Below, one piece after another: positions 2,228-38,485 of a DNA stretch of 38,485 nucleotides. How positions within the stretch are numbered: the first letter of the stretch is position 1; each line of letters begins with the position of its first letter. A program made the translations under genes and the position numbers. The DNA comes from a virus, in the UHGV virus genome UHGV-0171269; one strand, written 5' to 3'. The notes beneath the pieces are model-generated. The model worked only from the letters and a program-made list of their open reading frames with translations. It was not told where the DNA came from and searched no databases.

Positions 2228-2253
2228 CAGCCTAACAACAAGCATAATACGAA

Positions 2254-2295
2254 AGAGGGCCGCCCGTTCATAACTGGTGGCCCTCTTCTCTTTTC
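2254..2295 (+). terminator. Rho-independent terminator ending the first rightward operon
   Basis: Stem GAGGGCC (2255-2261) pairs with GGCCCTC (2278-2284), followed by TTCTCTTTTCC. Confidence 0.6.
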
Positions 2296-2345: not shown

Positions 2346-2943
2346 TGATTGGCGTTCGGATGAACACGCAGTCTTACTTGAGGTGGGGGGGGTCTGGAGT
2401 CCCCCGAACTGGTCCCGGTCGAGGCTTGAGAGCTAATGAGAGGCAGTCTAGGGGAAATGAGAAGAAGAGTAAAGAAGAAAAAAAATCAGTATTATCTTTC
2501 CGGAGTTTGGATTTGATAGAAGAGGTTGGCGAAATTAAATGGGAATAGGGAAGAGCGAGAGGAATTAGGAATAATACCGATTTTTGGTGGAGGGAGTAGA
2601 GAGTAAGAGAGGCGTGGAAGTAGAGGAGAGGGAGAGGTCGAAGAATTGGTGGAGAGTGGTGGTAAGAGAGGTTGGATGAGGGCAGAAAAGGGAGGAGTAT
2701 GGTTTGGAGGTTTTGGTTGGGAATGACCTGCATGACAGTAGGTTATTTTGGGATTTTGGTGTGTGAAAGATGAGGGCTGTTGATTGGATTTGATGAATTG
2801 TTAGTTGGCTTGGAGGAGTTGAGGCGGCGCCCTTAGTTAAGGGTTTGATAAATGGGATGTTTGGTTGGTTTGAGGAGGGGAAATTGGATGAAACGGCGCC
2901 ATGTTTGATTTTGGAGTTGACGGCTTAGGGAAAAACGTTATAG

Positions 2944-3435
2944 TTGAAAGAAAACAAAGGAGAGCTAGAAATGAAGAAATATGAACTGAGCGCATTTGTA
3001 AACTTTGATAACTGTTTTGAATCCCAATTCCCGGTTGGGGGGGAAGTTGGGGCGTTAAATAGGGTTTATGGTCATTTAAAGGGGATGTGCGCTAGTGGGG
3101 ATGATGTTCTTTTGGGTGTTAGCTTGGTTGAGGGAGGGCATAGGAGGAGTATGGGTGCGACATGTTTCAAATGGGGGTGTGGGGATTGTTTTGATTTGTC
3201 GAGGGGTATTAGTCGGTGTGGTGTTTTGGTGGAAGATATGAGCTACTGCTTTTTAACGTATGTTGCTAATGGGACTAACCCGTTGATTTATGGGATGCAG
3301 TATGTATGGGTTTTTTATAGTGACCGGATTGAGAAGGTGAATAGGATTGTAGCGGATTATTCATTTTCTGATTACCGCTTGCAAGGCTTATGGTTTTTTG
3401 ATGAAGAGCATTGTTTTAAAGATGCTTGTAATTAG
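2944..3435 (+). CDS. Hypothetical Cys/Gly/Val-rich protein (163 aa) with a strongly C-depleted coding strand
   Basis: ORF track. SD AAAGGAGAG at 2957-2965, 6 nt before the ATG at 2971. Codon composition is G/T-rich. Confidence 0.5.
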   Translation: MKENKGELEMKKYELSAFVNFDNCFESQFPVGGEVGALNRVYGHLKGMCASGDDVLLGVSLVEGGHRRSMGATCFKWGCGDCFDLSRGISRCGVLVEDMSYCFLTYVANGTNPLIYGMQYVWVFYSDRIEKVNRIVADYSFSDYRLQGLWFFDEEHCFKDACN

Positions 3436-8119: not shown

Positions 8120-8959
8120 ATGGCTAAGAATAAACTTGTAGTTCCTTTTTTGAAATGGGTTGGAGGAAAAAGACAACTTATTCCAGAAATTAGAAAGATG
8201 TTACCCAAAGGGGTAGCGAATCGTCCCTACTATGAGCCATTCATCGGAGGCGGAGCTTTATTTTTTGAACTCCAGCCAAAACAAGCAGTTATAAATGATT
8301 ATAACGAAGAGTTGATCAATGTTTATACGGTTATAAGGGACAACCACAATGAACTTATTGAGGATTTAAAGAAACATAAAAATACGTCAGAGTATTTTTA
8401 TGAAATTCGCTCTATGGATAGGCAACCTCTTTTTAAAAATCTTACCACTATCGAGCGAGCATCACGAATTATATATCTCAATAAAACTTGCTATAATGGA
8501 TTATATCGGGTTAATAATGCCGGGGAATTTAATTCTCCATTTGGAAAATATAAAAATCCAAATATTGTCAATGAGCCTGTGATTAAGGAGGTAAGTAAAT
8601 ATTTAAATTCTGGTCGGATTCAAATATCAAATGGTGATTATGAGGTAATTTTGAGAGATATACCAACAAACTCATTTGTGTATTTAGATCCTCCGTATCA
8701 TCCTATTTCAGAGAGTTCTAATTTTACAGGATACGTGCAGGGTGGATGGAGTGAGAGGGATCAGCTTAGGCTAAGAGATGTTTGTAATAGATTAAATAGC
8801 AATGGCATAAAATTTCTCCTATCAAATTCTGCATCTAATTTCATAAAAGAAATTTATGCGGAATACAATATTCATGTAGTACAGGCAAGTCGTGCTATAA
8901 ATTCAGATTCTTCTAAAAGAGGGCAAGTTGATGAATTTTTAATTAGCAATTATGAGTAA
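8120..8959 (+). CDS. dam: DNA N6-adenine methyltransferase (Dam/D12-class)
   Basis: LDPPYHP catalytic motif (DPPY) and the N-terminal FxGGG-like VGGKRQL / PFIGGGALFF SAM-binding region. 279 aa. Confidence 0.8.
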   Translation: MAKNKLVVPFLKWVGGKRQLIPEIRKMLPKGVANRPYYEPFIGGGALFFELQPKQAVINDYNEELINVYTVIRDNHNELIEDLKKHKNTSEYFYEIRSMDRQPLFKNLTTIERASRIIYLNKTCYNGLYRVNNAGEFNSPFGKYKNPNIVNEPVIKEVSKYLNSGRIQISNGDYEVILRDIPTNSFVYLDPPYHPISESSNFTGYVQGGWSERDQLRLRDVCNRLNSNGIKFLLSNSASNFIKEIYAEYNIHVVQASRAINSDSSKRGQVDEFLISNYE

Positions 8960-17303: not shown

Positions 17304-20300
17304 TTATTTGGTCTGCCAGCCGTTATCTTTGAGCTTCTTGTTAACTCGCCTAAGTTCCCGGGAAAGCCTTCTGTATTCTACGCTACGTTCGCCATAGGCA
17401 CTCTTGGCCTCACGCTTCTCTTTACGCAATCTGCGTGCGCTTTGCAATAGTTTTTCTCTGGTGTCGTAGAAGGGGTTGAGGTCAGACCTCGTAGTCTTGG
17501 CCGCATTGTGCGCTTGGAGAGTGGCATTGGACAAGGAGCTGATGACTTCAAACACACGTCCCACAGTTTTCGCATTGGCGATATTAGCTCCAAGGCCAAT
17601 CGTATCTCCCAGCGTCCGGCTAAGACCTGCCCCAACTTCAATCCATTCGTTTAGAGTCACGGCGTCCATGTCTTCCGTACTCTTCAATATAACTTCGTAA
17701 GCTTGGGAAAGGCCTCGTGCGGTTCTGCTAAAGTCCGTTAGCGTGTTAGGACGGGAGAAGACGTGCCCGCCTCCGAACGCATAGTAATCCAGCGCTTGGA
17801 ACAAACCTGCAAATACAGGGGTGGCGACAAGCGGGCCAAGAGACATGTTGAAGAGAATCGTTTCTGCCGAGAATTCATCATCGTTATAGCTCGTGAAGAA
17901 GGAAGCCGCCATGCCCGAAATGGTATTAGCAAAGCCAACGATAGTCCACATGCGGATGAAGTTGGCAAGCTTCCTCATGGAGCTAATGTCGCCACGCTTG
18001 AACTGGCTGAAAAGAAGAGCTGACTTGTTCAGCATGTCGCTCATGAACAAGACTTGGTAAGATTCGTAAGCTGATCCTCCAAGTGTGCCAATAGCTCTAG
18101 TAGATTGATTCTCAGGCTGGGCCGACTTTAGAATGTTAAGATTCAACTGGTCTATGATCTGCTCTTTCTTCAAGCCCCTATCATGCAAGATTTGCGCGGC
18201 CATCATGTTGCCACGCTTTACGCACCATAGGTCAAAGTCAATCAATGCCGAGTTGCCGCACTCCTGCCAGTACATGACCTGAGCCTGCTTCGTCTTTGGG
18301 GCGTCCATAGCGGCTTTGATTACCACCCTATCCTGATACGACAACGGGTTGCGAGCCTTCACGCCTTCCAGCTGGGCCATCTCTTGGAGAGAAATAGGCT
18401 GAGGGTTGAATAGCCAGCTACCCATGCTCTTTATAATCTCAAGACTGCTAAAGTCCGATCCTACCAACGGATTGAAGAACGCCGCACCGCTCCGGCAAAT
18501 GGAAGCCATAGAGTTAAAAATCTTCGTGCGGGCAAGAGTTCCAATCGCTTTGACGAAAAGCTCCCCGAATAATCCCTGCTGTGCGCGGATGCGTCCTTCA
18601 TTCAGGAAATTATAAAGGCCCTTGCTTGCCTGCTGGTAGTTCTCCTTGCCGATGACAAGCTGTATTTGTGCGGCCGTCTTCGTGTTCAGCCAAACTTTGT
18701 TGAAGTACTCATTCAATTCAAGGGAAGACATCCAGCCTTCCGCTATCTGAGCGTACCTTTCAAACTCCTGCACCGGATTTACCAGCATAGTTATTTCCGC
18801 AGAAGCCGGGGTGCTTCGCTTCTTCATGAAGGCGGGCTTGCCGGAATAAGTTATCTGCCCGGGAGTGTACCCTTGAGAATCATAGAACCCGTCCCCTAAT
18901 TGCCCCTCATGGGCCGTGGTGCGTGGAGTATAGAAGTCTTCCATCGTAGAGACCTGACCGAAGAAAGACTCTTCGATACTGGCCACCCTCTGGCCTAGTT
19001 CACGATACGCCGTCTGAATGGAGCGTGCCAAGAACAACCCGTCCGGACCAAGCGCATTAATAAGCGCCTCCTGATCTTTAGCGAGCCTATCCTGAAACGC
19101 TTCTTCTGCATTATCTACTTCTGCCTCATACTCATCTTGAGTTATCTCCTTATTGGAGAGCTGTTCGTCTAGCTGGGATGTGCGGCGCTCCAGAAGAGCA
19201 TAGTTCCCAAGATCAAGCTTGTAGTTGTTACGCAAGACTTTCACGCCATCAGACTCTTGCATGGTCTGATAAATCTTAATAAGCTGAGTCTTAACGTATT
19301 CTTCGCCCTTGAACTTAACAGGGGCGTTATTCATCTGATAGAAATGGCGCGCGATCTGAGTTGTCGAATCAGTGTTCTTGATCCCTGCCAGTTTTGCCGC
19401 ACCCTTAAGCCATGAAGAGATCATCGCATGCCGCTTCACCCGGGCATTGTCTCTCTGCATGGTTGCCCTCACTACCTCATTCAGCATGAAGTCACCGTTC
19501 CTTTTAAAGCCGGGCAGTGTTCCGAGGATTTCGGACAACTGAACAGTGGAAAGCATTCCTGTAAAGAAACTCTTTAACGAATTGTATTCTCCAGCTTCCT
19601 TGAGAAGATTTCTCAGATCATCCAGTTTCTTCTCTGTACCTACGGCCTTAGCTACTTCATCCTTAAACAGGTTAAGCTTCTGTTCGCGTCTCTCCAGCTC
19701 CTTCCTCCAGCGGAGCCGCCCCTCATCTTGAAGTTGCTTCAATGCGTCAAAAGCATTCTCCTGCTCTGCCAAGCTACGGACGAAGCTGTTCCCATCTTTG
19801 TAGAGAACAGAACCGAATGTATCAAGCAAGGAAATAGATTGCTGAATTTCTATTACTTGAGGATCATTCGGGTTTTGAGTCTTATTAACAGTTCTCTCAA
19901 GAAGGGCCTGCAATGCGTCTTGCTGGGCCTCTACCTTCTCTGGAGACATCTTCATCAGCTCCTCAACGGCAAGCGTGTTATAACGGCTCTGTGCGTCCAG
20001 CGTGGAGCTTACGCCCTTCCTATCTTTATAGGCTCTCTTTGCCAACCGCTCCAGCCCCTCGGTAGTCTTGACTTGTTGGGCCGCCTCAGCACGGAGCGCC
20101 GCCGCTTCTTCCTTGGAAGATTCTTTCAAGACCCTATCAACAATCTTCCTAACCTCACGTTGCGTACGGTTGAATTCGGCAGTTTGTATCTGGTTGTTGA
20201 TAGCTTTAACTCCACGGTCTAGCGCCGTTTGAAGGGCATTCTCAAATTGTAGTTGGCTCTTCGGGTTAGCTAGTGTTTCAGCTAATGGCCTTGGTATAAA

Positions 20301-23300
20301 TGATTTACCATAACGGCTAATAGCATTCTCAAGAGTAAGGACGCTGTTAAACAATGCCTTCTGCTGGCGCGCCTGAGAGAACTTCCCAGCTACTGCTTGC
20401 TCGGCAAGGCCCATGAAAGACTTGCGTATTGCCTTGAGACTGTTAATGGCCTGAGAAGAATTGCTCTCAAAGATATCTGCGATTGCCTTTTCAACGGTCT
20501 GGATGCCCGGACCTACACGCAAAGCGCTTGTTCTCTCCTGAACGGAAGGAAGGATCGCCGCCCCTGCCGCCTCATTAATCATGGACGCGATATCTCTGGC
20601 CTGCGTCTGGTCTGCCACATTAGCTAGAGACTGGGACCATTTAACAAAGTCTGCATCAAGAACTCCATCCTCAATGGCCTGCTTGATGCGCTGGCCTTCC
20701 TTAAAGATGTTGCCTACTTCCGCGATGTTGTCCTTCTGCCATTCAAGAATGCTCTGCACATCCCCGGGAAGAGTACCGAACAGTTCCGGGTTAGTGGCAA
20801 GCGCTTTCCCCATCGTGGCTAAGGCTTCTTGCAAGATAACATCGTCAGACAAGTTCCCAAAATCCCGGCCAGTGTACTCTCCATACTTGCGAATGGCGTT
20901 CTCAATATACTCCCGGGTGACTGCACCCGTGGCAAGATCATACGTCGCATTGGCATGGATGACTTCTTCCAGAATGTCTAGGGGATTGGCTCTCCCTTCG
21001 ATGACCGCTATTTGCCCAGCACGATACGCCGAAACAACCTCCAAATTATTAGCAACGTCCTCAACGGTAATTTCACCTGCATTGTATTGTTCTCGAAGTT
21101 CAGGGTTAGATTGAATGTAGGCTAGCGCCCTAGCCCTTGCCGTGGACTGGTTGATTCCTTCCGCATTCTGAATTGAGGAAAGAAGCTCGTCTTTGCTTAT
21201 CTCAATGCCTTGACTCTCAATGGCAGGTTCAAGCTGTCTCTGAGCAAATAGATTCAGGGCTTGCACAAAAGAAGGATTGGACGCCAGCGTCTCGGAAAGA
21301 TAAGTACCAGCTACTTCATCGGTGAGCGTCATAGTAGATTGCTGGCCGCTTTCAGGAGACGTCGTGGTGACGTCCCAAGTACCATCCCCGTTATCCTTGA
21401 ACGTGGGCATCAATTCCACATTCTTGAAAAGGTCGGCATTCTTCGCAACGAAATTCAGCATCGCGGCTGAACTGCTACCTACTGTTTCTGGCGACTGGTT
21501 TACATTGGTAGTATTAAAGAGCGCCTCCTGAATTAGGTTGGAGCGCTCCTTGCCGTCAGGCATAGTAGCAATCTGGTGGGCTACATCACTTTCAATGCCT
21601 AGGGCTATAAGAGCTTGAGGGCTTCTGCCTACCTTGTTAACCAAATGATTGGCTTGTACACCACCGAGCGCGCCCATAGAACCGCCAAGAACAACAGTAG
21701 GAATAAAGAATGCAGGGTCCAAAGGATTGTAATTCTCCCACCAGTCCCTAAGGGTATTCTGTTGAGTTAAATCTGCACCTAGGCTCCGGTAAAGATTTTC
21801 AACTCCAACATATACTGGGTCCGCAATACTTTCTTGTACGGTTTCCGTTAAAGCACCTGCCGCCCCAGCACGACCTATACGTGCCAATGTCGATCTTTCT
21901 GCTATAGCCTCAACTCCTCTTATCGCAGTAGAACCAAGTCCAGTAGCTCGTACTCCTTTAACTGCTAGACCACCAGTAGACATTGTGAGAGAATCAAGAG
22001 CGCCTTCTAGTGAGCCTACCGTTAATCCATACGCGATTGAACCTTCTCTACTAGAGTTTGATCTATAAGCATCGAGTCCGGCACTCGAGCCATAGACCAA
22101 TGAACCCATAGCTGTTGCTACGCTGTAAGTTGCAACTGGGTTCCTTGTTACAATTCCTGTAGATAAAGAAGACAAGCCGACGGCGGCAATTTTAGGAACA
22201 TTATCAACTAAGTTCCTGACCCCCATACCCCAATTGCTCTCAGGCATGTCTCGCATGGAGCGATATTCTTTCTGGATAGCTAGAGCAAGACGTTGAAATC
22301 TTTCTTCATCTTCGTCTTTCTCAGGAAGCATTCTTAAGAATGACCATATATCTTCATAGGTGTCGTTCAATGCTTGGACCAGCCATGCTCTATCGTCTTT
22401 GGGCAGAAATTCAGGAAGCATCTGAATAGCAATCTTGAACGAACCCGTATTCTCCCCAAGAGCTAGCAACCTGTCAGCCATCTTGTCCCAATCAAGGGAA
22501 CCCTCTTTTATATACTCATCCTTAATCCATGAAGTAGCTTCATATGCCGCTTGATATTGCGTCCGCAAATAAGGGGAATTGTTGAAAATGGAGCGTCCAT
22601 AAACTGAGTTAGGACCGAGAGAGTCAATGGCTTTCTCAAAGTCTCCTCCATTTTCCAAGAAGGCCGGAAGGAAATCTGCCTCTGCCTTGTAATATCCTTC
22701 CTTTACTTCATTTGCCCTCTTTAAATCTTGAGAGTACTTATTAATGACGCCATTGATGCTGTCCGTCTTATATTCCCTCATGAGAATAGCGGCGGCCATC
22801 TCATCAGAAATACTCATGTTAGGGAACTTCACTTCCTTGATAGCTCCGAAAAGCTCTCTCTCTTTCGTAGCTCGGTCAGCGCTATTCCAAGATGCTATCT
22901 GGTCAGCATTCAAAAGTTTCCCTAACTTATTATCGACAACTTCATCTGTATCAATATAACCGTAAAGTCCTTTTTCCGGTTGTATGTTTTGAGTTAATGC
23001 GGAGAATATAGCGTTGGTCCTCTCTACCTTCTCTCTCCTTAGCTCAAATGTAGGGTCAATCCCTCTCTTCTTCAAGGAATCATTAAGCCGAAGGATTTCA
23101 TCCATCATCGAGCTATCGAGAACATTGCTTTGCCTAAACTCCCGTTGAAGCTTTTTATAGGATTCCAAATCTTCGAGAGTTTCCCTACGCAAAGCATTTG
23201 CCCGACTCCCTAAGTAGTTAGCTCTTTCAGTTTCGCTAAGTTCTGCGTATCCCACTCCCTGCGCCCTGCGCTGTTCACGGGCGATAGCTTCTTGGTCGCC

Positions 23301-23393
23301 AGATATTCCAAGCGAAGGAATAACTGATTCATCCAAAGGAGGAGGAGTCACTCCTTCGTCATCAGGCAATACGGGTTCGATAGGCTCGTCCAT
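17304..23393 (-). CDS. Giant virion protein (2029 aa), a candidate internal-core / DNA-ejection protein comparable to T7 gp16
   Basis: One uninterrupted 6.09-kb ORF. Long coiled-coil-rich central region (E/K/Q/A/L). Position between the gp15-like protein and the fibre. Confidence 0.45.
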   Translation of the reverse strand: MDEPIEPVLPDDEGVTPPPLDESVIPSLGISGDQEAIAREQRRAQGVGYAELSETERANYLGSRANALRRETLEDLESYKKLQREFRQSNVLDSSMMDEILRLNDSLKKRGIDPTFELRREKVERTNAIFSALTQNIQPEKGLYGYIDTDEVVDNKLGKLLNADQIASWNSADRATKERELFGAIKEVKFPNMSISDEMAAAILMREYKTDSINGVINKYSQDLKRANEVKEGYYKAEADFLPAFLENGGDFEKAIDSLGPNSVYGRSIFNNSPYLRTQYQAAYEATSWIKDEYIKEGSLDWDKMADRLLALGENTGSFKIAIQMLPEFLPKDDRAWLVQALNDTYEDIWSFLRMLPEKDEDEERFQRLALAIQKEYRSMRDMPESNWGMGVRNLVDNVPKIAAVGLSSLSTGIVTRNPVATYSVATAMGSLVYGSSAGLDAYRSNSSREGSIAYGLTVGSLEGALDSLTMSTGGLAVKGVRATGLGSTAIRGVEAIAERSTLARIGRAGAAGALTETVQESIADPVYVGVENLYRSLGADLTQQNTLRDWWENYNPLDPAFFIPTVVLGGSMGALGGVQANHLVNKVGRSPQALIALGIESDVAHQIATMPDGKERSNLIQEALFNTTNVNQSPETVGSSSAAMLNFVAKNADLFKNVELMPTFKDNGDGTWDVTTTSPESGQQSTMTLTDEVAGTYLSETLASNPSFVQALNLFAQRQLEPAIESQGIEISKDELLSSIQNAEGINQSTARARALAYIQSNPELREQYNAGEITVEDVANNLEVVSAYRAGQIAVIEGRANPLDILEEVIHANATYDLATGAVTREYIENAIRKYGEYTGRDFGNLSDDVILQEALATMGKALATNPELFGTLPGDVQSILEWQKDNIAEVGNIFKEGQRIKQAIEDGVLDADFVKWSQSLANVADQTQARDIASMINEAAGAAILPSVQERTSALRVGPGIQTVEKAIADIFESNSSQAINSLKAIRKSFMGLAEQAVAGKFSQARQQKALFNSVLTLENAISRYGKSFIPRPLAETLANPKSQLQFENALQTALDRGVKAINNQIQTAEFNRTQREVRKIVDRVLKESSKEEAAALRAEAAQQVKTTEGLERLAKRAYKDRKGVSSTLDAQSRYNTLAVEELMKMSPEKVEAQQDALQALLERTVNKTQNPNDPQVIEIQQSISLLDTFGSVLYKDGNSFVRSLAEQENAFDALKQLQDEGRLRWRKELERREQKLNLFKDEVAKAVGTEKKLDDLRNLLKEAGEYNSLKSFFTGMLSTVQLSEILGTLPGFKRNGDFMLNEVVRATMQRDNARVKRHAMISSWLKGAAKLAGIKNTDSTTQIARHFYQMNNAPVKFKGEEYVKTQLIKIYQTMQESDGVKVLRNNYKLDLGNYALLERRTSQLDEQLSNKEITQDEYEAEVDNAEEAFQDRLAKDQEALINALGPDGLFLARSIQTAYRELGQRVASIEESFFGQVSTMEDFYTPRTTAHEGQLGDGFYDSQGYTPGQITYSGKPAFMKKRSTPASAEITMLVNPVQEFERYAQIAEGWMSSLELNEYFNKVWLNTKTAAQIQLVIGKENYQQASKGLYNFLNEGRIRAQQGLFGELFVKAIGTLARTKIFNSMASICRSGAAFFNPLVGSDFSSLEIIKSMGSWLFNPQPISLQEMAQLEGVKARNPLSYQDRVVIKAAMDAPKTKQAQVMYWQECGNSALIDFDLWCVKRGNMMAAQILHDRGLKKEQIIDQLNLNILKSAQPENQSTRAIGTLGGSAYESYQVLFMSDMLNKSALLFSQFKRGDISSMRKLANFIRMWTIVGFANTISGMAASFFTSYNDDEFSAETILFNMSLGPLVATPVFAGLFQALDYYAFGGGHVFSRPNTLTDFSRTARGLSQAYEVILKSTEDMDAVTLNEWIEVGAGLSRTLGDTIGLGANIANAKTVGRVFEVISSLSNATLQAHNAAKTTRSDLNPFYDTREKLLQSARRLRKEKREAKSAYGERSVEYRRLSRELRRVNKKLKDNGWQTK

Positions 23394-31836: not shown

Positions 31837-32760
31837 TTACCATTGAACGTGCGTAGATGCAAGCCGATTATATTCCTCCCTCGCATCTTTTGGCATCCGG
31901 TCCAAACTTCCGTATTTGGAAATCATGTCAATCATGCGTTGCTGGGCACTCGTCCCTGATTGGGACCTCATCACTCCCGGAGTAGGCATCGTCCCTTCCT
32001 GATACCTTGCCGCCTTTTCGTACAAGGCTTCCAAGATATATGGGTTATTGAGGGCCATCGCAAAAGAGCTATCATCAACGTCAATCCCCGCATCGATCAA
32101 GCTCTGCCGAAGGATTGTTGCGTTGCGTTCATACTGCGGCCCCCATTCCTTCCTGAAATGCTCCTGAGCCTGCTTGGAAGCTTCTTCCACTCTCCTTACA
32201 AACTCTTCATTGTTCTTGCGGTAAAGCGTATCTTGATAGCGCAGAAGCTCCTGTGCCGTCTCAGCCGGGATGTTGTGCTTATGGGCAAACGCCGCAAACT
32301 CTTTAAAGCTCGCCTCGTCATAATTGTCCTTATACTCATCAGGAATCTGGTACCCATCAACATTGTCAGGAACGCCAATGTAGGAGCGCCATGCTTTAAT
32401 CTCTTCCTCACTGGCCCCTTCTCCCGGCTTCTTCACGCCGTCGAACTTCTTGCCAATTAACTGGTTGGCATTCACAAAGCCTTTCACCAGTTCATCAACA
32501 TTCTTGTACTTCCCTAGAGAGTCGGCACCTTCAAACTTGGAAGTCCACCCTTCCTTGAAAGAGCCATCCTCGCCGATAATATCAGCCACCTTAAATGCCT
32601 GCTGTTGCGTATCAGTCGGGGCCGGGCTTGTATCGAGCTTCATCGTACCCGGCATCTGCATCTGCTGTGCAGGCTGGGTAGTTTGCGTGGCGGGGGCGGC
32701 GCTCCCTGTCGTGGTGGTAGGGGCCTGACCCCCTGCATTATTTGGATTGCTATCAATCAT
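31837..32760 (-). CDS. Scaffolding protein (307 aa)
   Basis: Acidic, Q/T/A-rich low-complexity N-terminus. Sits between portal and capsid. Same length as T7 gp9. Confidence 0.5.
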   Translation of the reverse strand: MIDSNPNNAGGQAPTTTTGSAAPATQTTQPAQQMQMPGTMKLDTSPAPTDTQQQAFKVADIIGEDGSFKEGWTSKFEGADSLGKYKNVDELVKGFVNANQLIGKKFDGVKKPGEGASEEEIKAWRSYIGVPDNVDGYQIPDEYKDNYDEASFKEFAAFAHKHNIPAETAQELLRYQDTLYRKNNEEFVRRVEEASKQAQEHFRKEWGPQYERNATILRQSLIDAGIDVDDSSFAMALNNPYILEALYEKAARYQEGTMPTPGVMRSQSGTSAQQRMIDMISKYGSLDRMPKDAREEYNRLASTHVQW

Positions 32761-33056
32761 TTTCCTGCTAGGTATTTTATTAATTCAAGCACTTGGCGCG
32801 CTCCTGATATGAACATTGCTCTGTTCGCATCAAAGTCTGCAAGCAAGGGGGCTTCCTTCTTCACATGTTCTTTATCACACAAAGAAAGGTCAACCATTGT
32901 AGTAAGATAAAAGAGCAAGCGATTGGTTAATTCGGACCCCTTAAATTCTTCCCGGAACCGGATAAAATCTTCCTCCGGCACTTTGCTTACATTTCCGAAG
33001 AAGTCATAAACCTTTAATGCCTTCTTCTTGTTTTTATCATCAGTAGTTATTTCCAT
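32757..33056 (-). CDS. Hypothetical protein (99 aa) between portal and scaffold
   Basis: ORF track. ATGA overlap with the scaffold gene. Confidence 0.4.
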   Translation of the reverse strand: MEITTDDKNKKKALKVYDFFGNVSKVPEEDFIRFREEFKGSELTNRLLFYLTTMVDLSLCDKEHVKKEAPLLADFDANRAMFISGARQVLELIKYLAGK

Positions 33057-33059
33057 AAA

Positions 33060-34679
33060 TCATCGCATGTTCCCTATAGCGCTTCCAATGTTCTTCTGGA
33101 TTTCAGAAGCTTCAAGAGCATTAGCCATCTGATTGGCCCCCTGTTGCGCCGCTTCTCTTTCTTTAATAAGACGGTCAACCTTCGCTTTATCCTTGAGTAT
33201 CTTGGTCGGCATCCCAATAGATTTAATCCCTGACCTCATGATAAAATCAGTATCAAAGCTAATCATCACATCAGGATCAATCTGAGCCAAAGGAATCGCA
33301 ATCGTCTGCATGAACTCGGAGAATAGCGTCGGCTGGTGACGGTCCAAAAGCATTTGGAAAGGAGTCGTAAACTTGATGCTAAAATCATCCAGCGCAGGAA
33401 CAAGCTTCTCATCTCGAAGAAGCTCATAGCAACGCATCACTACAGGCTGTAGGAACTCTTCCGTCAACCTAGTGTAGGCAGGGGAAGCAATCCTCGCAGA
33501 ATACGCTTCGATCATCTGCGCCACCGTCGCCTTCATGTATTGAGGGTCTTTGACCTGCAACAACGGCGCAAACAAATCCATGTCGCATGTCTTCTGAATG
33601 TTGTTCTCAAGCCTCTGCACCTGCCATTGCATCTCATTAGCCTGCATCATGTTCTGGAACAAGGGCGTCGGCTTGGCCTGAACGTTCATCGGGTTGAAGG
33701 TTGTCACCCCGCCAAACCCCCAGTCAATGTTCCCATCAAATCCTTCCGGCACCAGCATCGGCGGGAATATCTTCTGCATGGCCGATTCGCTCAACGCCTT
33801 AACGGAGTTGGTCAATTCGGTCTGGTCCCCTAATGCCCTCAAACCAGCACCAACTCCATAAGGAGAGTTGGCAATATCAAAATAGTTTGAGACGCTCACA
33901 GGGCTTGTCCAAAAATACTGCGTCGCCAGAACATCTCCTGACTGGTCAAACACGCTACGCATCACCCACGGCCTGCCATTAGCCTCTTTAATCAGCTTCT
34001 CGTCTCCCGTCCTCTCCACCTTCTCCAGCAAATGGAACACAAGATAGTTGTCAGGATTTACACTGCTCGCCTGATATTTCTCCTTCACCATGTCAGGCAG
34101 TACATTCTCCGGGAACGTCGCGACAATGTCCTGTATCCTCAACCACTCATCCCAGCAAAACGTATGGACATTCCCAAACTTGTCCCTGTCCACCATGAAA
34201 TCCCCTACAGGAATATGCGCAAATTTCAGCATCCCTCGCACCTTGTCCCATTCGGACCAGAAGGCCGCCTGACCGTAAGCCGCACGATCAAAGTAAAAAA
34301 GCTCGGAAGCCGTGTGGAAGTTGCTGTTGCGCATAAACCACGCAACCTGCCTCCCTGTCTCATAATAAATGTTCTCAATCGTGCTATCAATCTGGCTCTG
34401 ATCGTCGATCTTGGCCAATGGCTCAAAGCTAAACCATCCCTGACTCTTGGGCGTTATAAGCTCATGCTGGCCAGCCGCATTTACCCTCAAAGCCCTTTCA
34501 AGCGTCTGGTCCAAATAGCCAAGGTCCGTCCCAGTAGATTGATAAACCGCACCGTTAATGTTGAACTTCTTCTCAGGATCAACGTATTGCGCGATCCTCT
34601 GCCAGTTGCTCACGTACCGCTGGCGGAAAGCATACAAATCCGCATGCTTCTGCTTGGCATCTTGTTTGTTGGTAACCAT
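33060..34679 (-). CDS. Portal protein (539 aa)
   Basis: Size and its position downstream of the large terminase and upstream of scaffold/capsid. AGGT SD-like element upstream. Confidence 0.6.
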   Translation of the reverse strand: MVTNKQDAKQKHADLYAFRQRYVSNWQRIAQYVDPEKKFNINGAVYQSTGTDLGYLDQTLERALRVNAAGQHELITPKSQGWFSFEPLAKIDDQSQIDSTIENIYYETGRQVAWFMRNSNFHTASELFYFDRAAYGQAAFWSEWDKVRGMLKFAHIPVGDFMVDRDKFGNVHTFCWDEWLRIQDIVATFPENVLPDMVKEKYQASSVNPDNYLVFHLLEKVERTGDEKLIKEANGRPWVMRSVFDQSGDVLATQYFWTSPVSVSNYFDIANSPYGVGAGLRALGDQTELTNSVKALSESAMQKIFPPMLVPEGFDGNIDWGFGGVTTFNPMNVQAKPTPLFQNMMQANEMQWQVQRLENNIQKTCDMDLFAPLLQVKDPQYMKATVAQMIEAYSARIASPAYTRLTEEFLQPVVMRCYELLRDEKLVPALDDFSIKFTTPFQMLLDRHQPTLFSEFMQTIAIPLAQIDPDVMISFDTDFIMRSGIKSIGMPTKILKDKAKVDRLIKEREAAQQGANQMANALEASEIQKNIGSAIGNMR

Positions 34680-34680
34680 C

Positions 34681-34965
34681 TTATTGACCTAATGCGCTTT
34701 TGCCACTTACCCCGCTACCTGCCCCCAAGGCGTTCTTGCTCGCAACAAAGGTTCCTCCAAAGGAACTACGGCGCCTGTTCTCACGTATCTTGTTCTCCGT
34801 GCCAGACGTATCGACTGTTACCTCATTCACTGGCTTCTCAGGAGCAGGAGCATCCATCCCCTCCTTGTTCTGCTTCAAGCCTAATACGCCTCCAACGATA
34901 TTAGTAACACCTTTGAACACGCCGCTAATAGCGTTGCCTATCTCTTTAAACGGATTGCCGCCCAT
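34681..34965 (-). CDS. Small Gly-rich protein (94 aa)
   Basis: ORF track. Stop 1 nt before the portal start. Confidence 0.4.
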   Translation of the reverse strand: MGGNPFKEIGNAISGVFKGVTNIVGGVLGLKQNKEGMDAPAPEKPVNEVTVDTSGTENKIRENRRRSSFGGTFVASKNALGAGSGVSGKSALGQ

Positions 34966-35380
34966 GATTTTTTCCCTTTCCTAATAATTTAATTAGCAAT
35001 TCAACTTCTTTTCTCCCGTACAGATACACATTCCCCGCACGAAAGCCAATAAAATATTTCATCCTCTCCTCTTTTATCATCCATCTTAACAACACTCTAA
35101 AATCTCCAACCCCTAAATAAAAGAAGAACCCATTCGCATCATGACGGCTACATGATAACGAAGGAACGCACGCCTGCTTCACCCTAGACCAGCATTCCTC
35201 CACATCAGCCCACCCATCTTCCATCCTAAAGAAATGCCCCATCACAAGGCATCTATCATCCCATCGCCGATATAAATAACGATGCTCCTCCCAAGACGCA
35301 TCAAAATCCGCGCCTAAAGCTTTCAGGACCGCGCGCCCCTCCTCTCCTAGACATGAGGCCTTCATAGTTGTTTCTATCAA
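34946..35380 (-). CDS. Hypothetical protein (144 aa) overlapping the 3' end of the terminase gene. Start uncertain.
   Basis: ORF track. Overlaps the TerL C-terminus by 80 nt, so an internal start may be the true one. Confidence 0.3.
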   Translation of the reverse strand: MIETTMKASCLGEEGRAVLKALGADFDASWEEHRYLYRRWDDRCLVMGHFFRMEDGWADVEECWSRVKQACVPSLSCSRHDANGFFFYLGVGDFRVLLRWMIKEERMKYFIGFRAGNVYLYGRKEVELLIKLLGKGKNHGRQSV

Positions 35381-36920
35381 TATTTAAATTGCTAAAGTTC
35401 CGGCCAAAGCTCTTCTTTACATGCGTCTCTCCTCCTCCACTTACATTCCCAAGCAAACCAGCCATCCGAGCCTCAGCTATGTATCTCAACGAATCACTCC
35501 AATGCGACGAACTATCATGCACGATCTCGTTCTTATAGGCCCCATTCTCTCCAAGCGCTGGCTTCATCCTGTAGCTTAACCAATACGGATAAGCCTTCTC
35601 CGTCCCCCCTATATCAAATCTCAATAAAGGGAACATCCCTAGCAAGTAATTGATACTTATCCATTTATCTCTTATTCTAGGCAAGCATACTATCCCCGGC
35701 AACCCAGCCTGTTGCCACATGTACGCCTGACTTAAACCCGTATCCGTCGTGTACCCAGCATCATGCGGAAATATGTTCCGCATCAAGGTAGGAAATCTAC
35801 TCAACAACCGAGCCGTCCTCTGCGCCGGACCCTCACTGCTATATTGGCCGCAATCGCTATCAACTATCCATATCAACCCCTCCTTCAACTGGAACACCGT
35901 CGAAACCGTATTCAACGGATTCCCCAAGTCCCATGTCGCATAACACGGCAATGTCGGATCATATGGCGCATGCAAAAAATGACCATCCCTCATCGACGCC
36001 TCAAGAACTTCCTCCAATATCGCACCTTCCATCGGCACCTCAAACGCCTCGTCAAGCGTAGAAGGGTATTCCTCGTTCATCGATAAGCCATGTTGCCTCT
36101 TCGCCTTCTGCCACCAAACCTTCTGCCTGTCTTCCAAGTCGATCCCATATTTCGCCTTCAACGTCGTAAAGTAACTCTTCGTACTCTCCGTCAACGGCTC
36201 ATCATCATCACTAACATTGCTCTCATCTTCCCACCACGGCAAAAATACAACGTTAAAGTCCTTCTCCCCCCTATGCCCCTCTTCTATCGATAACGCATTC
36301 ATCACGTTCTCATAGAATATCCCCTTCTTCCCCCCTCTTACTGTCGTCTCAACAAAAATAAATCCATCCTTCGCCGCAGGAAACGTCGCATTCACTATCT
36401 CCGCCGCCCTCTTCGGCTCCGTCGCACTTATCGTTCCCAACTCCGATATGTGCGCAAACCCCAAACCACTGCCCCTAAAGTATTTACCACCAACTATACG
36501 GCTCGACTTCCTACCAACCATCTCCACCGTAATCATCTTGTTGTTAAATTCCATCTTAAACAACCAAGGCAATTTCCTCCTCAAACTCTCCAACGCAACC
36601 CTCACTATCTCCCTCAACTTCTCCTCAGCATCAGGTTGCGTCCTGTCAACCAACGCCAATAACCACCCCTCATTAAACGCCGCCATGTCCGCCATCATCA
36701 CACCAATACACGTACTACACCCCTGACGACGCGACTTCGGCACCAAAAACCTCTTCTTCCCCCTCAAATAACACTCCTCATGCAACCTACGCTGGAATTC
36801 CCTAGGCTCATATCTAATCACTCGACCATCCGTCAACTTGATCTCATACAAGTTGCTCAGCCTCCACATAGGGTCTTTCAACCTTTCCAATAACAATCTC
36901 TTCTCTTCCGAACTTAACAT
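35301..36920 (-). CDS. Terminase large subunit (539 aa)
   Basis: Walker-A-like VPKSRRQGCST, acidic FLPWWEDE, a C-terminal nuclease-like region. Sits before the portal. Confidence 0.7.
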   Translation of the reverse strand: MLSSEEKRLLLERLKDPMWRLSNLYEIKLTDGRVIRYEPREFQRRLHEECYLRGKKRFLVPKSRRQGCSTCIGVMMADMAAFNEGWLLALVDRTQPDAEEKLREIVRVALESLRRKLPWLFKMEFNNKMITVEMVGRKSSRIVGGKYFRGSGLGFAHISELGTISATEPKRAAEIVNATFPAAKDGFIFVETTVRGGKKGIFYENVMNALSIEEGHRGEKDFNVVFLPWWEDESNVSDDDEPLTESTKSYFTTLKAKYGIDLEDRQKVWWQKAKRQHGLSMNEEYPSTLDEAFEVPMEGAILEEVLEASMRDGHFLHAPYDPTLPCYATWDLGNPLNTVSTVFQLKEGLIWIVDSDCGQYSSEGPAQRTARLLSRFPTLMRNIFPHDAGYTTDTGLSQAYMWQQAGLPGIVCLPRIRDKWISINYLLGMFPLLRFDIGGTEKAYPYWLSYRMKPALGENGAYKNEIVHDSSSHWSDSLRYIAEARMAGLLGNVSGGGETHVKKSFGRNFSNLNIDRNNYEGLMSRRGGARGPESFRRGF

Positions 36921-36939
36921 ATCAACCCCTAATCCTTTA

Positions 36940-37437
36940 CTATCTAACTATCTCTCTCATCTCAAACTCAACCGCCTGCCAGTCAACATTAACGTGCGGA
37001 CCAATCGCCTCTTTGCTCATAAATTTCCACGCAAACAACACCAAATCTGTACTATCCCTACCTCCATACTTCTTATACAACCACCTAGCCTTCCCCTTAA
37101 TCCGGTACTTCGTCCTGCTCCGCAATACATAAAACTTACACGTCTCCTCTCCATCAACCACATCATCCCCAGCAGAAACCCCAGCAGGCCTAATCCCATT
37201 CAGGTTCTCAACTCCCCTCAGCTTAGAACCCTCATAAACCAATTTATATTTCTTACTCAAATACCTCTTCTTCTCTTCCAATTTCCCGTCCCTCTCGTAT
37301 ATGTCATACGCCCTCCTAACATTCAAACTACATCTCCCGTACTTCTTCCACCCCATCAGCAAGTAATACAACTCCTGCTCAAATTTCCTAACTCCCTTCC
37401 CCTCTACCTCCAACCGCGCCTCATTACTTATCCCCAT
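36940..37437 (-). CDS. Candidate terminase small subunit (165 aa)
   Basis: Lies directly upstream of TerL. K/R/G/E/Y-rich with almost no CCN or CAN codons, giving a G-free plus strand. Confidence 0.35.
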   Translation of the reverse strand: MGISNEARLEVEGKGVRKFEQELYYLLMGWKKYGRCSLNVRRAYDIYERDGKLEEKKRYLSKKYKLVYEGSKLRGVENLNGIRPAGVSAGDDVVDGEETCKFYVLRSRTKYRIKGKARWLYKKYGGRDSTDLVLFAWKFMSKEAIGPHVNVDWQAVEFEMREIVR

Positions 37438-37924
37438 AATTCCCCCCTTTCAACAATTCACTAAGCTCACTCCCCATCTCCTCTTCACTACCCCCTCCAT
37501 TCCCAAGCCATCCCTTCATCCTTATAAACATGCTCAACGCCTGCAACTGGTCCTTCCCACTCACTCCTTCCCCCCTACCCATCTTACTCAACAACCGCTC
37601 CACCTCTCCCCTACTCAACACACCAACTTCTCCATCATCCACTAAATCCATACCCAGCTCCTCCTTCAACATCTCTAACAACTCCCCCTCATTCCTCCTC
37701 ATACCATCCTCAAAATATTCATCTCTCTCCCCTAACAAATCTGTACTAATCTCACCATAGCTCTTCCTCCCCAACAACACCAACAACATTCCTCTCAACT
37801 CCACCATCCCTACCTTCAACCCATAACCAAGCCTCTCTAACTCCTTCTCCCTCTCTTCACTCTCATCACACTCCAACAACCAGACAATATGCCTCTCAAG
37901 CTCTTCCGATAATTCTTCTCTCAT
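37424..37924 (-). CDS. Glu/Leu/Gly-rich low-complexity protein (166 aa), the first gene of the leftward arm
   Basis: ORF track. Extremely C-depleted coding strand. Confidence 0.35.
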   Translation of the reverse strand: MREELSEELERHIVWLLECDESEEREKELERLGYGLKVGMVELRGMLLVLLGRKSYGEISTDLLGERDEYFEDGMRRNEGELLEMLKEELGMDLVDDGEVGVLSRGEVERLLSKMGRGEGVSGKDQLQALSMFIRMKGWLGNGGGSEEEMGSELSELLKGGNYGDK

Positions 37925-38211
37925 CTCAAAAACATATATAAATCATCCTCTCATCATTGTCTATGCTTTTTTCCCATAAAGCCCCAACACAACAAAACTA
38001 CAAATCCTCTCCTATACTCTACATATACTATACTCCATCTCTTTTCTCAGATTTTTCTTACACGAGGTACCCTTCTTCGTGCGCTTGACGCCGCCGCCGC
38101 TTTTCTCCCGCCGGCCCCCTCGAGACCCCCTCCAGTGGTCCCCCTAGGGGTGGGGTTATCGTCTCGGCTACGCTAAGAGGGGTGAGCTGGAGAGGTCGAG
38201 CGTCAGGCATT

Positions 38212-38240
38212 GCGGTGCGTGGTGCGTGGTGTTGCGTGGT
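38212..38240. repeat. Iteron-like tandem heptamers GCGGT-GCGTGGT-GCGTGGT-GTT-GCGTGGT
   Basis: Read directly. Confidence 0.8.
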
Positions 38241-38264
38241 CTATCATGTTGTTGGCGTCACCAA

Positions 38265-38279
38265 GATGATGATGATGAT
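38265..38279. repeat. (GAT)5 trinucleotide repeat
   Basis: Read directly. Confidence 0.9.
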
Positions 38280-38401
38280 TTGAAAAAAATGTGACGAGTT
38301 GACAAAAAAGCTTGCAATGGTGAGAGAAAATTGACACAAAGAGTGCATCAAGTGAGGGGCACGACGCCTCGAACGACGACAACCGACAACCAAAAACAAA
38401 C

Positions 38402-38485
38402 ATGAAAGTGACCATTAACAAACTAGCATCAAAGCGCCTCTTAGAGGCATTTGCCAAAGTCGGAGCTTGCAGGACCGAGGAGCAA
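38402..38485 (+). CDS. 5' part of an ORF that runs off the window end and matches the frame of 1..243
   Basis: ATG 38402 followed by 28 sense codons to the window end with no stop. No SD upstream, so the start is uncertain. Confidence 0.3.
   Translation, partial: MKVTINKLASKRLLEAFAKVGACRTEEQ

Follow-up and report, generated by a model that had tools for sequence, protein, structure and literature searches.

A conserved single-copy DNA element upstream of the late packaging and structural genes in an uncultured podophage family

The region between the two diverging gene arms of the virus genome UHGV-0171269 contains a GC-rich block, which raises the question of whether this DNA acts through its structure or through its sequence, and in what process. 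The stretch of DNA analyzed (hereafter the window, 38,485 nt) is a complete, circularly assembled podophage genome of 38.5 kb from an uncultured family of short-tailed phages. The frame that opens at 38402 stays open over the 38485/1 junction to a stop at 243, which places the assembly break point inside a gene (ORF 38402–243). The junction is also spanned by an independent contig (L002). From position 37924, the minus-strand arm encodes two small proteins, TerL, a T7-type portal (33060–34679), a capsid protein, tail proteins, and a 2029-aa protein. The plus arm codes for Dam (8120–8959) and C5 (10618–11868) methyltransferases, a DUF2800 nuclease, RuvC, and a DnaC/IstB-like ATPase. Genes for a DNA polymerase, an RNA polymerase, or an integrase were not found in the window.

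An initial annotation had read the block at 38080–38200 as an imperfect palindrome and proposed that it could be a cos or pac site, a terminal-repeat boundary collapsed by assembly, a cruciform origin element, or a strong bidirectional structure. We find that a conserved DNA signal of ~100 bases lies before the packaging and structural genes and that the block makes up its upstream half. The features of this locus are listed below.

35301–36920, minus strand: terminase large subunit (TerL), identified by phrog_2 and tblastn
37424–37924, minus strand: first gene of the leftward late arm from gene calls (ORF1, 166 aa), terS-like by position and weak similarity to SPP1 G1P
37925–38057, minus strand: putative late-operon leader, almost C-free, assigned from composition; AT-rich 11-nt repeats at 37998–38033
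38055–38162, minus strand: conserved element, delimited by the model R1 match, family alignments, and the limit set by the L064 deletion
38066–38078, minus strand: M4 motif GAAGAAGGGTACC (GGTAYC in relatives), candidate late-promoter −10/start region, marked by the C change point and an 11-mer
38090–38098, plus strand: (GCC)3, located between M1 and M4 as part of their spacer; conservation limited to scattered G and C positions
38101–38109, minus strand: M1 motif GGGAGAAAA, the core of the element, invariant as GGG..AAA in all relatives
38121–38126 and 38161–38166, no strand assigned: 6-nt inverted repeat CGAGAC/GTCTCG with arms 34 nt apart, not conserved
38141–38150, no strand assigned: palindrome CCCCTAGGGG, with family-wide conservation limited to the CTAGG core
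38280–38340, plus strand: candidate early promoter/operator, three TTGA(A/C)A(A/C)AAA boxes ahead of the early gene at 38402
From 38402, over the junction to 243, plus strand: first gene of the rightward early arm, from gene calls

The compositional part of the earlier description is accurate. The string quoted for 38080–38200 is present, and it lies in the control region from which the late arm runs leftward and the early arm rightward. At 68.6% GC, compared with 45.3% for the genome, the block has a higher GC content than any other 121-nt window (top 0.05% of windows). The second GC-richest 121-nt window (0.678) is at 32615–32735, at the start of gene 31837–32760. The sub-motifs are also present, but their coordinates had been shifted by 2–3 nt: CGAGAC had been placed at 38124–38129 and GTCTCG at 38163–38168. 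The flip in composition reported at the block is real and sharp. The biggest fall in plus-strand C occurs at 38145 (from 77 to 27 per 200 nt), so that CCCCTAGGGG sits at the center of the plus-strand skew flip, and the biggest fall in minus-strand C occurs at 38058 (from 69 to 8). GC skew is −0.93 at 37600–37799, versus about +0.2 to the right of the block.

The palindrome, which had been singled out as a special feature, is ordinary and incidental to the conserved element. The genome has 19 perfect 10-nt palindromes, compared with 35.7 ± 6.1 in local shuffles. This genome-wide under-representation fits restriction avoidance. Likewise, the suggestion of a cruciform or a strong bidirectional structure does not hold up, because the block folds no better than shuffled sequences, whether as minus-strand RNA (201 nt; z = +0.40), as DNA (121 nt; z = +0.73), or as RNA of the 61-nt core (z = +0.72 and −0.83). 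RNAalifold applied to 10 family sequences found 0 conserved base pairs on both strands. Moreover, the arms are broken in ~97%-identical strains (CTAGGC in L006, GGCTCG in L065, and GTGTCG plus a 71-nt deletion in L064), and the CGAGAC/GTCTCG repeat is broken in L003 too. The palindrome reads CCCCTAGTGG in L003 and L006, CCCCTAGGTG in the 65% TerL clade, and ACTAGGG in L005 and L108. Thus, palindrome and arms vary freely among ~97%-identical strains, an outcome that the initial annotation had itself named as speaking against the palindrome as a structure. A minus-strand G-quadruplex (three GGGGG runs and one GGG run) was considered and dropped, since other clades have only three G-runs.

What is conserved in this region is a set of short motifs. 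On the minus strand, the consensus consists of C(C/A)CTAGG(G/T)G, a spacer of 34–36 nt, GGGRGAAAA, a spacer of 28–29 nt, and (G)AAGG(G)TAYC. A model built solely from sequence (R1) scores 59.6 bits at 38055–38148 on the minus strand, and the runner-up in the genome scores 5.6 bits, which makes the element single copy. R1 also finds one copy in relatives outside model building (64.7 bits in L110, 50.7 in L109, and 22 in L108). The element is conserved in clades at 85%, ~65%, and ~40–50% protein identity, and down to ~50% TerL identity. Two collinear relatives, L099 and L102, have just the last two motifs. In all clades, and in divergent and collinear genomes alike, the element lies 45–190 nt upstream of the first late, terS-like gene. 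Its upstream limit is set by strain L064, which lacks 38163–38233 and keeps the remainder.

Both spacings are held while the sequence of the spacers varies. Fixed spacing with changing spacer sequence is typical of protein sites on DNA, and we infer that the motifs bind proteins. The conservation of motifs and geometry, together with the lack of conserved pairs, indicates that the element is a DNA-sequence signal rather than a hairpin. Many strains (L003, L004, L006, L064, L069, L070, and L073) carry a 47-nt indel at 38071 that is a tandem second copy of the GGTNCCTCG(A/T)G..AGAAA unit bearing the M4 motif; the window has the single-copy form. In the 65% TerL clade (L007–L019; for example, L010 2200–3230), the element is preceded, at a distance of ~1 kb, by a long conserved noncoding region. 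This region has no convincing ORF and no Rfam match at E ≤ 1, and includes a hairpin of the GC(UUCG)GC type.

The gene that follows the element, ORF1, is conserved throughout the family as the gene that opens the late arm. The motif G.S.KD...A..L....GW in its C-terminal part aligns weakly with its counterpart in SPP1 G1P, a small terminase (hhalign E 0.016). Searches of ORF1 against Pfam, PHROG, NCBIfam, and PDB, and of ORF2 against Pfam, PHROG, and NCBIfam, gave no match. From its position and this weak similarity, ORF1 can tentatively be called terS-like.

The downstream edge of the element coincides with an abrupt loss of cytosine from the sense strand. Maximum-likelihood change points in C frequency fall 2–11 nt past GGTAYC at 11 loci from five clades, and sense-strand C drops there from 0.19–0.33 upstream to 0.03–0.06 downstream. 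The exceptions are the collinear L099 and L102, in which the C-poor zone starts 100–240 nt upstream of the element. In the first late gene, the C frequencies at codon positions 1, 2, and 3 are 0.05, 0.02, and 0.02. These values are 0.07, 0.09, and 0.07 in the second late gene, 0.12, 0.18, and 0.11 in TerL, and roughly 0.2, 0.24, and 0.24 beyond ~3.4–6.6 kb. Over that distance, Pro, His, Gln, Thr, and Ala together rise from 3% of first-gene residues to ~25%. The C depletion of the late operon therefore fades over ~5 kb, a trend seen at each of the three codon positions and in the amino acids used. Because AT skew is near 0, the depletion is not simple purine loading. C-specific depletion covers 33000–38057 of the window (minus sense) and is also seen in L005–L019, L099, L102, and L108. 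The highest GC skew is 0.93 in the window and 1.00 in relatives.

We favor, at about even probability, a reading drawn from sequence in which the element would be the upstream control region and promoter of the late packaging and structural operon. The block would then be upstream, nontranscribed control DNA of the late terS–terL–portal–capsid–tail operon, and the working units would be the short motifs at fixed spacing, with CTAGG near −90, GGGRGAAAA near −50, and AAGG(G)TAYC between about −10 and −20. Leftward transcription of this ~25-kb operon would most likely start at ~38050–38060. A change confined to one strand that sets in at a motif and weakens farther along is consistent with a transcript 5′ end just after GGTAYC, and the cytosine boundary is presumably the transcription start. 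The element precedes the first late gene in all relatives, as would be expected at the 5′ boundary of a late unit. In addition, promoters often vary by tandem duplication of the kind seen for the GGTNCCTCG..AGAAA unit in many strains, which supports a promoter.

If the element is a promoter, it may not act alone. The 65% TerL clade has TGGACA, 17 nt, and TGTAAT or CATAAT in this region, near the sigma-70 layout, but the −35-like TGGACA is missing in the window's own clade. A sigma-70 scan of 37400–38485 returned nothing; the host may be Akkermansia-like, and its promoter rules may differ. A poor −35 combined with conserved upstream sites suggests a factor-dependent promoter, which could depend on a phage or host factor such as an activator or an antiterminator-type loader. 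Some observations count against a promoter. In L099 and L102, where the C-poor zone begins upstream of the element, the element could lie inside a leader. Also, the whole element is single copy and only an 11-mer within it recurs, so it is not a repeated promoter class.

This 11-mer recurs at a second boundary in the early arm, where the following features are found.

2253–2287, plus strand: intrinsic-terminator hairpin that ends the first early unit (−25.6 kcal/mol; z = −5.98), followed by UCUCUUUU
2380–2471, plus strand: second GC-rich patch (2380–2435), then CTAGGGGAAA and GAAGAAGAGTA (2461–2471), from composition and motif match
2440–2970, plus strand: C-poor tract of ~530 nt ahead of the gene at 2972, with no plus-frame ORF >33 aa

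Read rightward from 2253 to 2970, the order is terminator, AAAAAGCTTGACA box, GC-rich patch, GAAGAAGAGTA, and C-poor tract. The second sharpest C drop of the genome, at 2427 on the plus strand, marks the start of the tract, which could be a very long leader or a noncoding RNA. The exact pattern GAAGAAGRGTA occurs twice in the genome, at M4 and at 2461–2471 on the plus strand, both in sense orientation, whereas 0.06 occurrences are expected for this pattern, which was picked after one of its two sites had been seen. In strain L020, the 11-mer reads GAAGAAGAGTC, with GTC replacing GTA. The 2461–2471 copy lies at a C drop past a strong terminator, a point at which transcription has to start afresh, and this location supports the promoter reading. 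The initial annotation had related the block to a patch at 2385–2430 through a shared core and homopolymers. This kinship stands at the level of architecture and of the exact 11-mer, which lies just outside the coordinates given then, but sequence similarity is at the level of chance (best local score 22; shuffles 18.3 ± 2.6, maximum 26). Homology of the two blocks was dropped, since the similarity is not significant and R1 misses the second one. The second patch also folds no better than shuffles (z = +0.98). TTGA(C/A)A boxes with AAAAAGCTTG just before them occur at 38280–38340 and again at 2331–2344, upstream of the second patch; neither set has a sigma-70-like −10 at 16–18 nt.

A position next to terS is equally expected of a pac site, which counts against the promoter reading. 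The main rival explanation, a pac site for headful packaging bound by the terS-like protein, could coexist with a promoter; we regard it as rather doubtful. It would account for the single copy, for the location beside the terS-like gene whatever the genome order (the terS assignment itself being weak), for DNA sequence that is conserved without structure and includes G-runs and an A-tract, and for a circular assembly broken in a gene, as expected for permuted DNA. The nearest characterized TerL relatives (Lessievirus CSP3, ~29% identity) are predicted to package by the headful mechanism, and no fixed termini were found for CSP3 (PMC10269572). About 8 of 20 IMG/VR family contigs end <1 kb from the element. 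However, these ends scatter (38081, 38127, and 38173, and several hundred nucleotides to the left or right in other clades) and fall at indels and at purine tracts of low complexity, and their enrichment was dropped as evidence for termini. Contig 158356 has both of its ends ~350–450 nt downstream of the element, without overlap, and most long contigs run straight across the element. Known pac sites are more often inside terS. A pac site also leaves unexplained both the loss of C 2–11 nt after GGTAYC and the matching 11-mer at the second boundary. The pacL-pacC-pacR region of SPP1 offers a comparison, since both it and the element are nonpalindromic with A-tracts, sit at the start of terS, and overlap its promoter region, which is putative in the case of the element; SPP1 is a headful phage whose record begins at the pac cut inside gene 1. 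Unlike SPP1 pac, to which it has no sequence similarity, the element lies wholly upstream of the gene.

Fixed ends, either a cos site or a direct-terminal-repeat boundary collapsed by assembly, are unlikely. Like the cos sites of P2 and 186, the block is GC rich, has GGCGGGGAAAG-like sequence, and adjoins terminase genes. The element of L007 (1775–1800) includes GAGGCGGGGAAA, which is 12 nt of the 19-nt P2 cohesive end GGCGAGGCGGGGAAAGCAC, but this match was noted after the motif had been seen and is a lead rather than a test. GCGCTG(G)AC follows GAGGCGGGGAAA both in L007 and in P2 cosL (L103 1–19). The window TerL has no similarity to P2 gpP, and its nearest characterized relatives, which are Bcep22/CSP3-like, lack fixed ends; the resemblance to P2 cos was dropped because the terminases are unrelated. 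Three close contigs do terminate inside the block, but their ends are 46 and 92 nt apart, no fixed ends are seen among the contigs, and several other contigs span the site, as does the window, whose circular assembly is broken elsewhere, inside a gene.

A replication origin, with or without cruciform extrusion, is very unlikely, and we reject it together with the cruciform, structured RNA, and terminator readings. Both the lowest point of cumulative GC skew and the point where the arms diverge do lie at 38.1 kb, and the AT-rich 11-nt repeats at 37998–38033 adjoin the block. In opposition, the skew of the plus arm tracks transcription units (−0.2 at 1400–2300, +0.8 past the terminator), and, in contrast to replication skew, the skew declines with distance and is as high as 0.9. 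L099 and L102 keep the element beside terS, even though nothing diverges there and the skew keeps its sign. The AT-rich repeats are missing in other clades, the palindrome arms are not conserved and folding is unexceptional, as described above, and the helicase-loader gene and a perfect 30-nt tandem repeat are located elsewhere. There is no DnaA-box cluster (12 matches genome-wide versus 8.7 expected, 0 in the block), and there are no iterons in the block. We consider it just as improbable that the element is a structured RNA or nucleic-acid signal (a put-like RNA, riboswitch, bidirectional terminator, or RfaH ops-like site). Such a signal could be expected at the head of a very long operon, and in L099 and L102 the element may sit inside the leader. 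The window M1, as GGCGGGAG, matches the ops core GGCGGTAG at 7/8 positions, but the critical T is G in all members (CGCCGGGG in L010 and GTGGGGAG in L102), and the RfaH ops/JUMPstart sequence GGCGGTAGnnTG is not found in the non-template leader strand. The 0 conserved pairs on either strand and the shuffle-like folding also argue against an RNA. Rfam gave no match even at E ≤ 1, a tRNA search found nothing, and 37400–38485 has no terminator-like site, in contrast to the terminator at 2253–2287.

Whether it serves the late-gene switch or packaging, the element is a defined ~100-bp target in an abundant uncultured phage family. The block is the version, in an uncharacterized family, of a familiar cis-element, and the unusual part is the cytosine-free gradient that starts at it. 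For the favored promoter reading, the closest parallels are activator-dependent late promoters such as those of P2/P4 (Ogr-Delta) and Mu (C), which likewise lie at the 5′ end of a morphogenetic operon and have a weak or absent −35. A further similarity is that the element has a small dyad (CCTAGG) and other conserved sites at fixed upstream distances; the P2/P4 type has an upstream dyad site, and the P2 record annotates an activator site between the divergent late promoters pO and pP. Unlike these promoters, the element has no TGT-N12-ACA motif, no activator gene was identified, and the dyad lies at about −90, not at −55. P2 has four late promoters, but a genome of this family has a single full element, whose start site is placed from composition only.

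The gradient leads to a tentative proposal, which we regard as possible though not probable, that RNA of the transcription units starting at the element is purged of cytosine. If this is true, then processivity would be encoded in the base composition of the operon rather than by an antiterminator protein, and the GC-rich block would be the promoter or loader. Since an early stop is costly for all the genes beyond it, a 5′-to-3′ gradient would result from selection against C-dependent termination. Candidate selective causes could be Rho termination and chain terminators of the ddhCTP type made by viperins, since such chain-terminating CTP analogues would select against C likewise. The late sense strand is the opposite of the C-rich, G-poor RNA that Rho requires at rut sites ("C>G bubbles") (PMC6144790). 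As in Szybalski's rule, the sense strand is G rich and C poor, and the asymmetry tracks the direction of transcription. Unlike that rule, the magnitude here is far greater (skew up to 0.93–1.0, C about 2–5%), and the effect is cytosine specific (AT skew about 0), sets in sharply at a conserved motif, and declines over about 5 kb. A literature search returned no description of such a cytosine-depletion gradient in phages. The sharp C boundary offers a natural system for asking whether base composition alone can shield a long operon from Rho or from nucleotide-analogue defenses.

The phage is abundant, with its exact TerL in 283 blocks and its exact RuvC in 511 of a public-assembly index. Its TerL is ~30% identical to the TerL proteins of Ralstonia and Bcep22-like podophages by tblastn. 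GenBank phages gave no blastn match for 36500–38485, and a scan of GTDB representative genomes with the window TerL found nothing. A PDB sequence search with TerL, ORF1, and the 2029-aa protein gave no match. The 2029-aa protein (17304–23393, minus strand) occupies the position of an internal virion protein and is also without a Pfam or PHROG match. In IMG/VR, a TerL-profile scan gave the same 19 family loci as an earlier scan; a loose three-part DNA pattern returned mostly chance matches, with family members only from samples 3300045988 and 3300008523.

A collinear relative (L099/L105; TerL 50% identical) lies mid-contig in CAYVAI010000001.1 (243,838 nt), which is labeled as an Akkermansia sp. 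MAG. This context suggests a temperate family member and a Verrucomicrobial host, and the window phage family may infect Akkermansia-like hosts. A 235-kb contig (L076; ENA ERZ1673735 NODE_20, 235,788 nt) fuses the phage, at about window 5.6–6.7 kb, to T4_baseplate and Phage_TTP_2 genes. It was dropped as prophage context, since it is probably a chimera with a T4-baseplate phage. Finally, a perfect 2 × 30-nt tandem repeat, AAACGGTGACGCAACTATTATATGTGACCT, is present at 1468–1527, at the end of ORF 1151–1531. This repeat may be iteron-like, and three near-full-length Logan contigs break at about this position.
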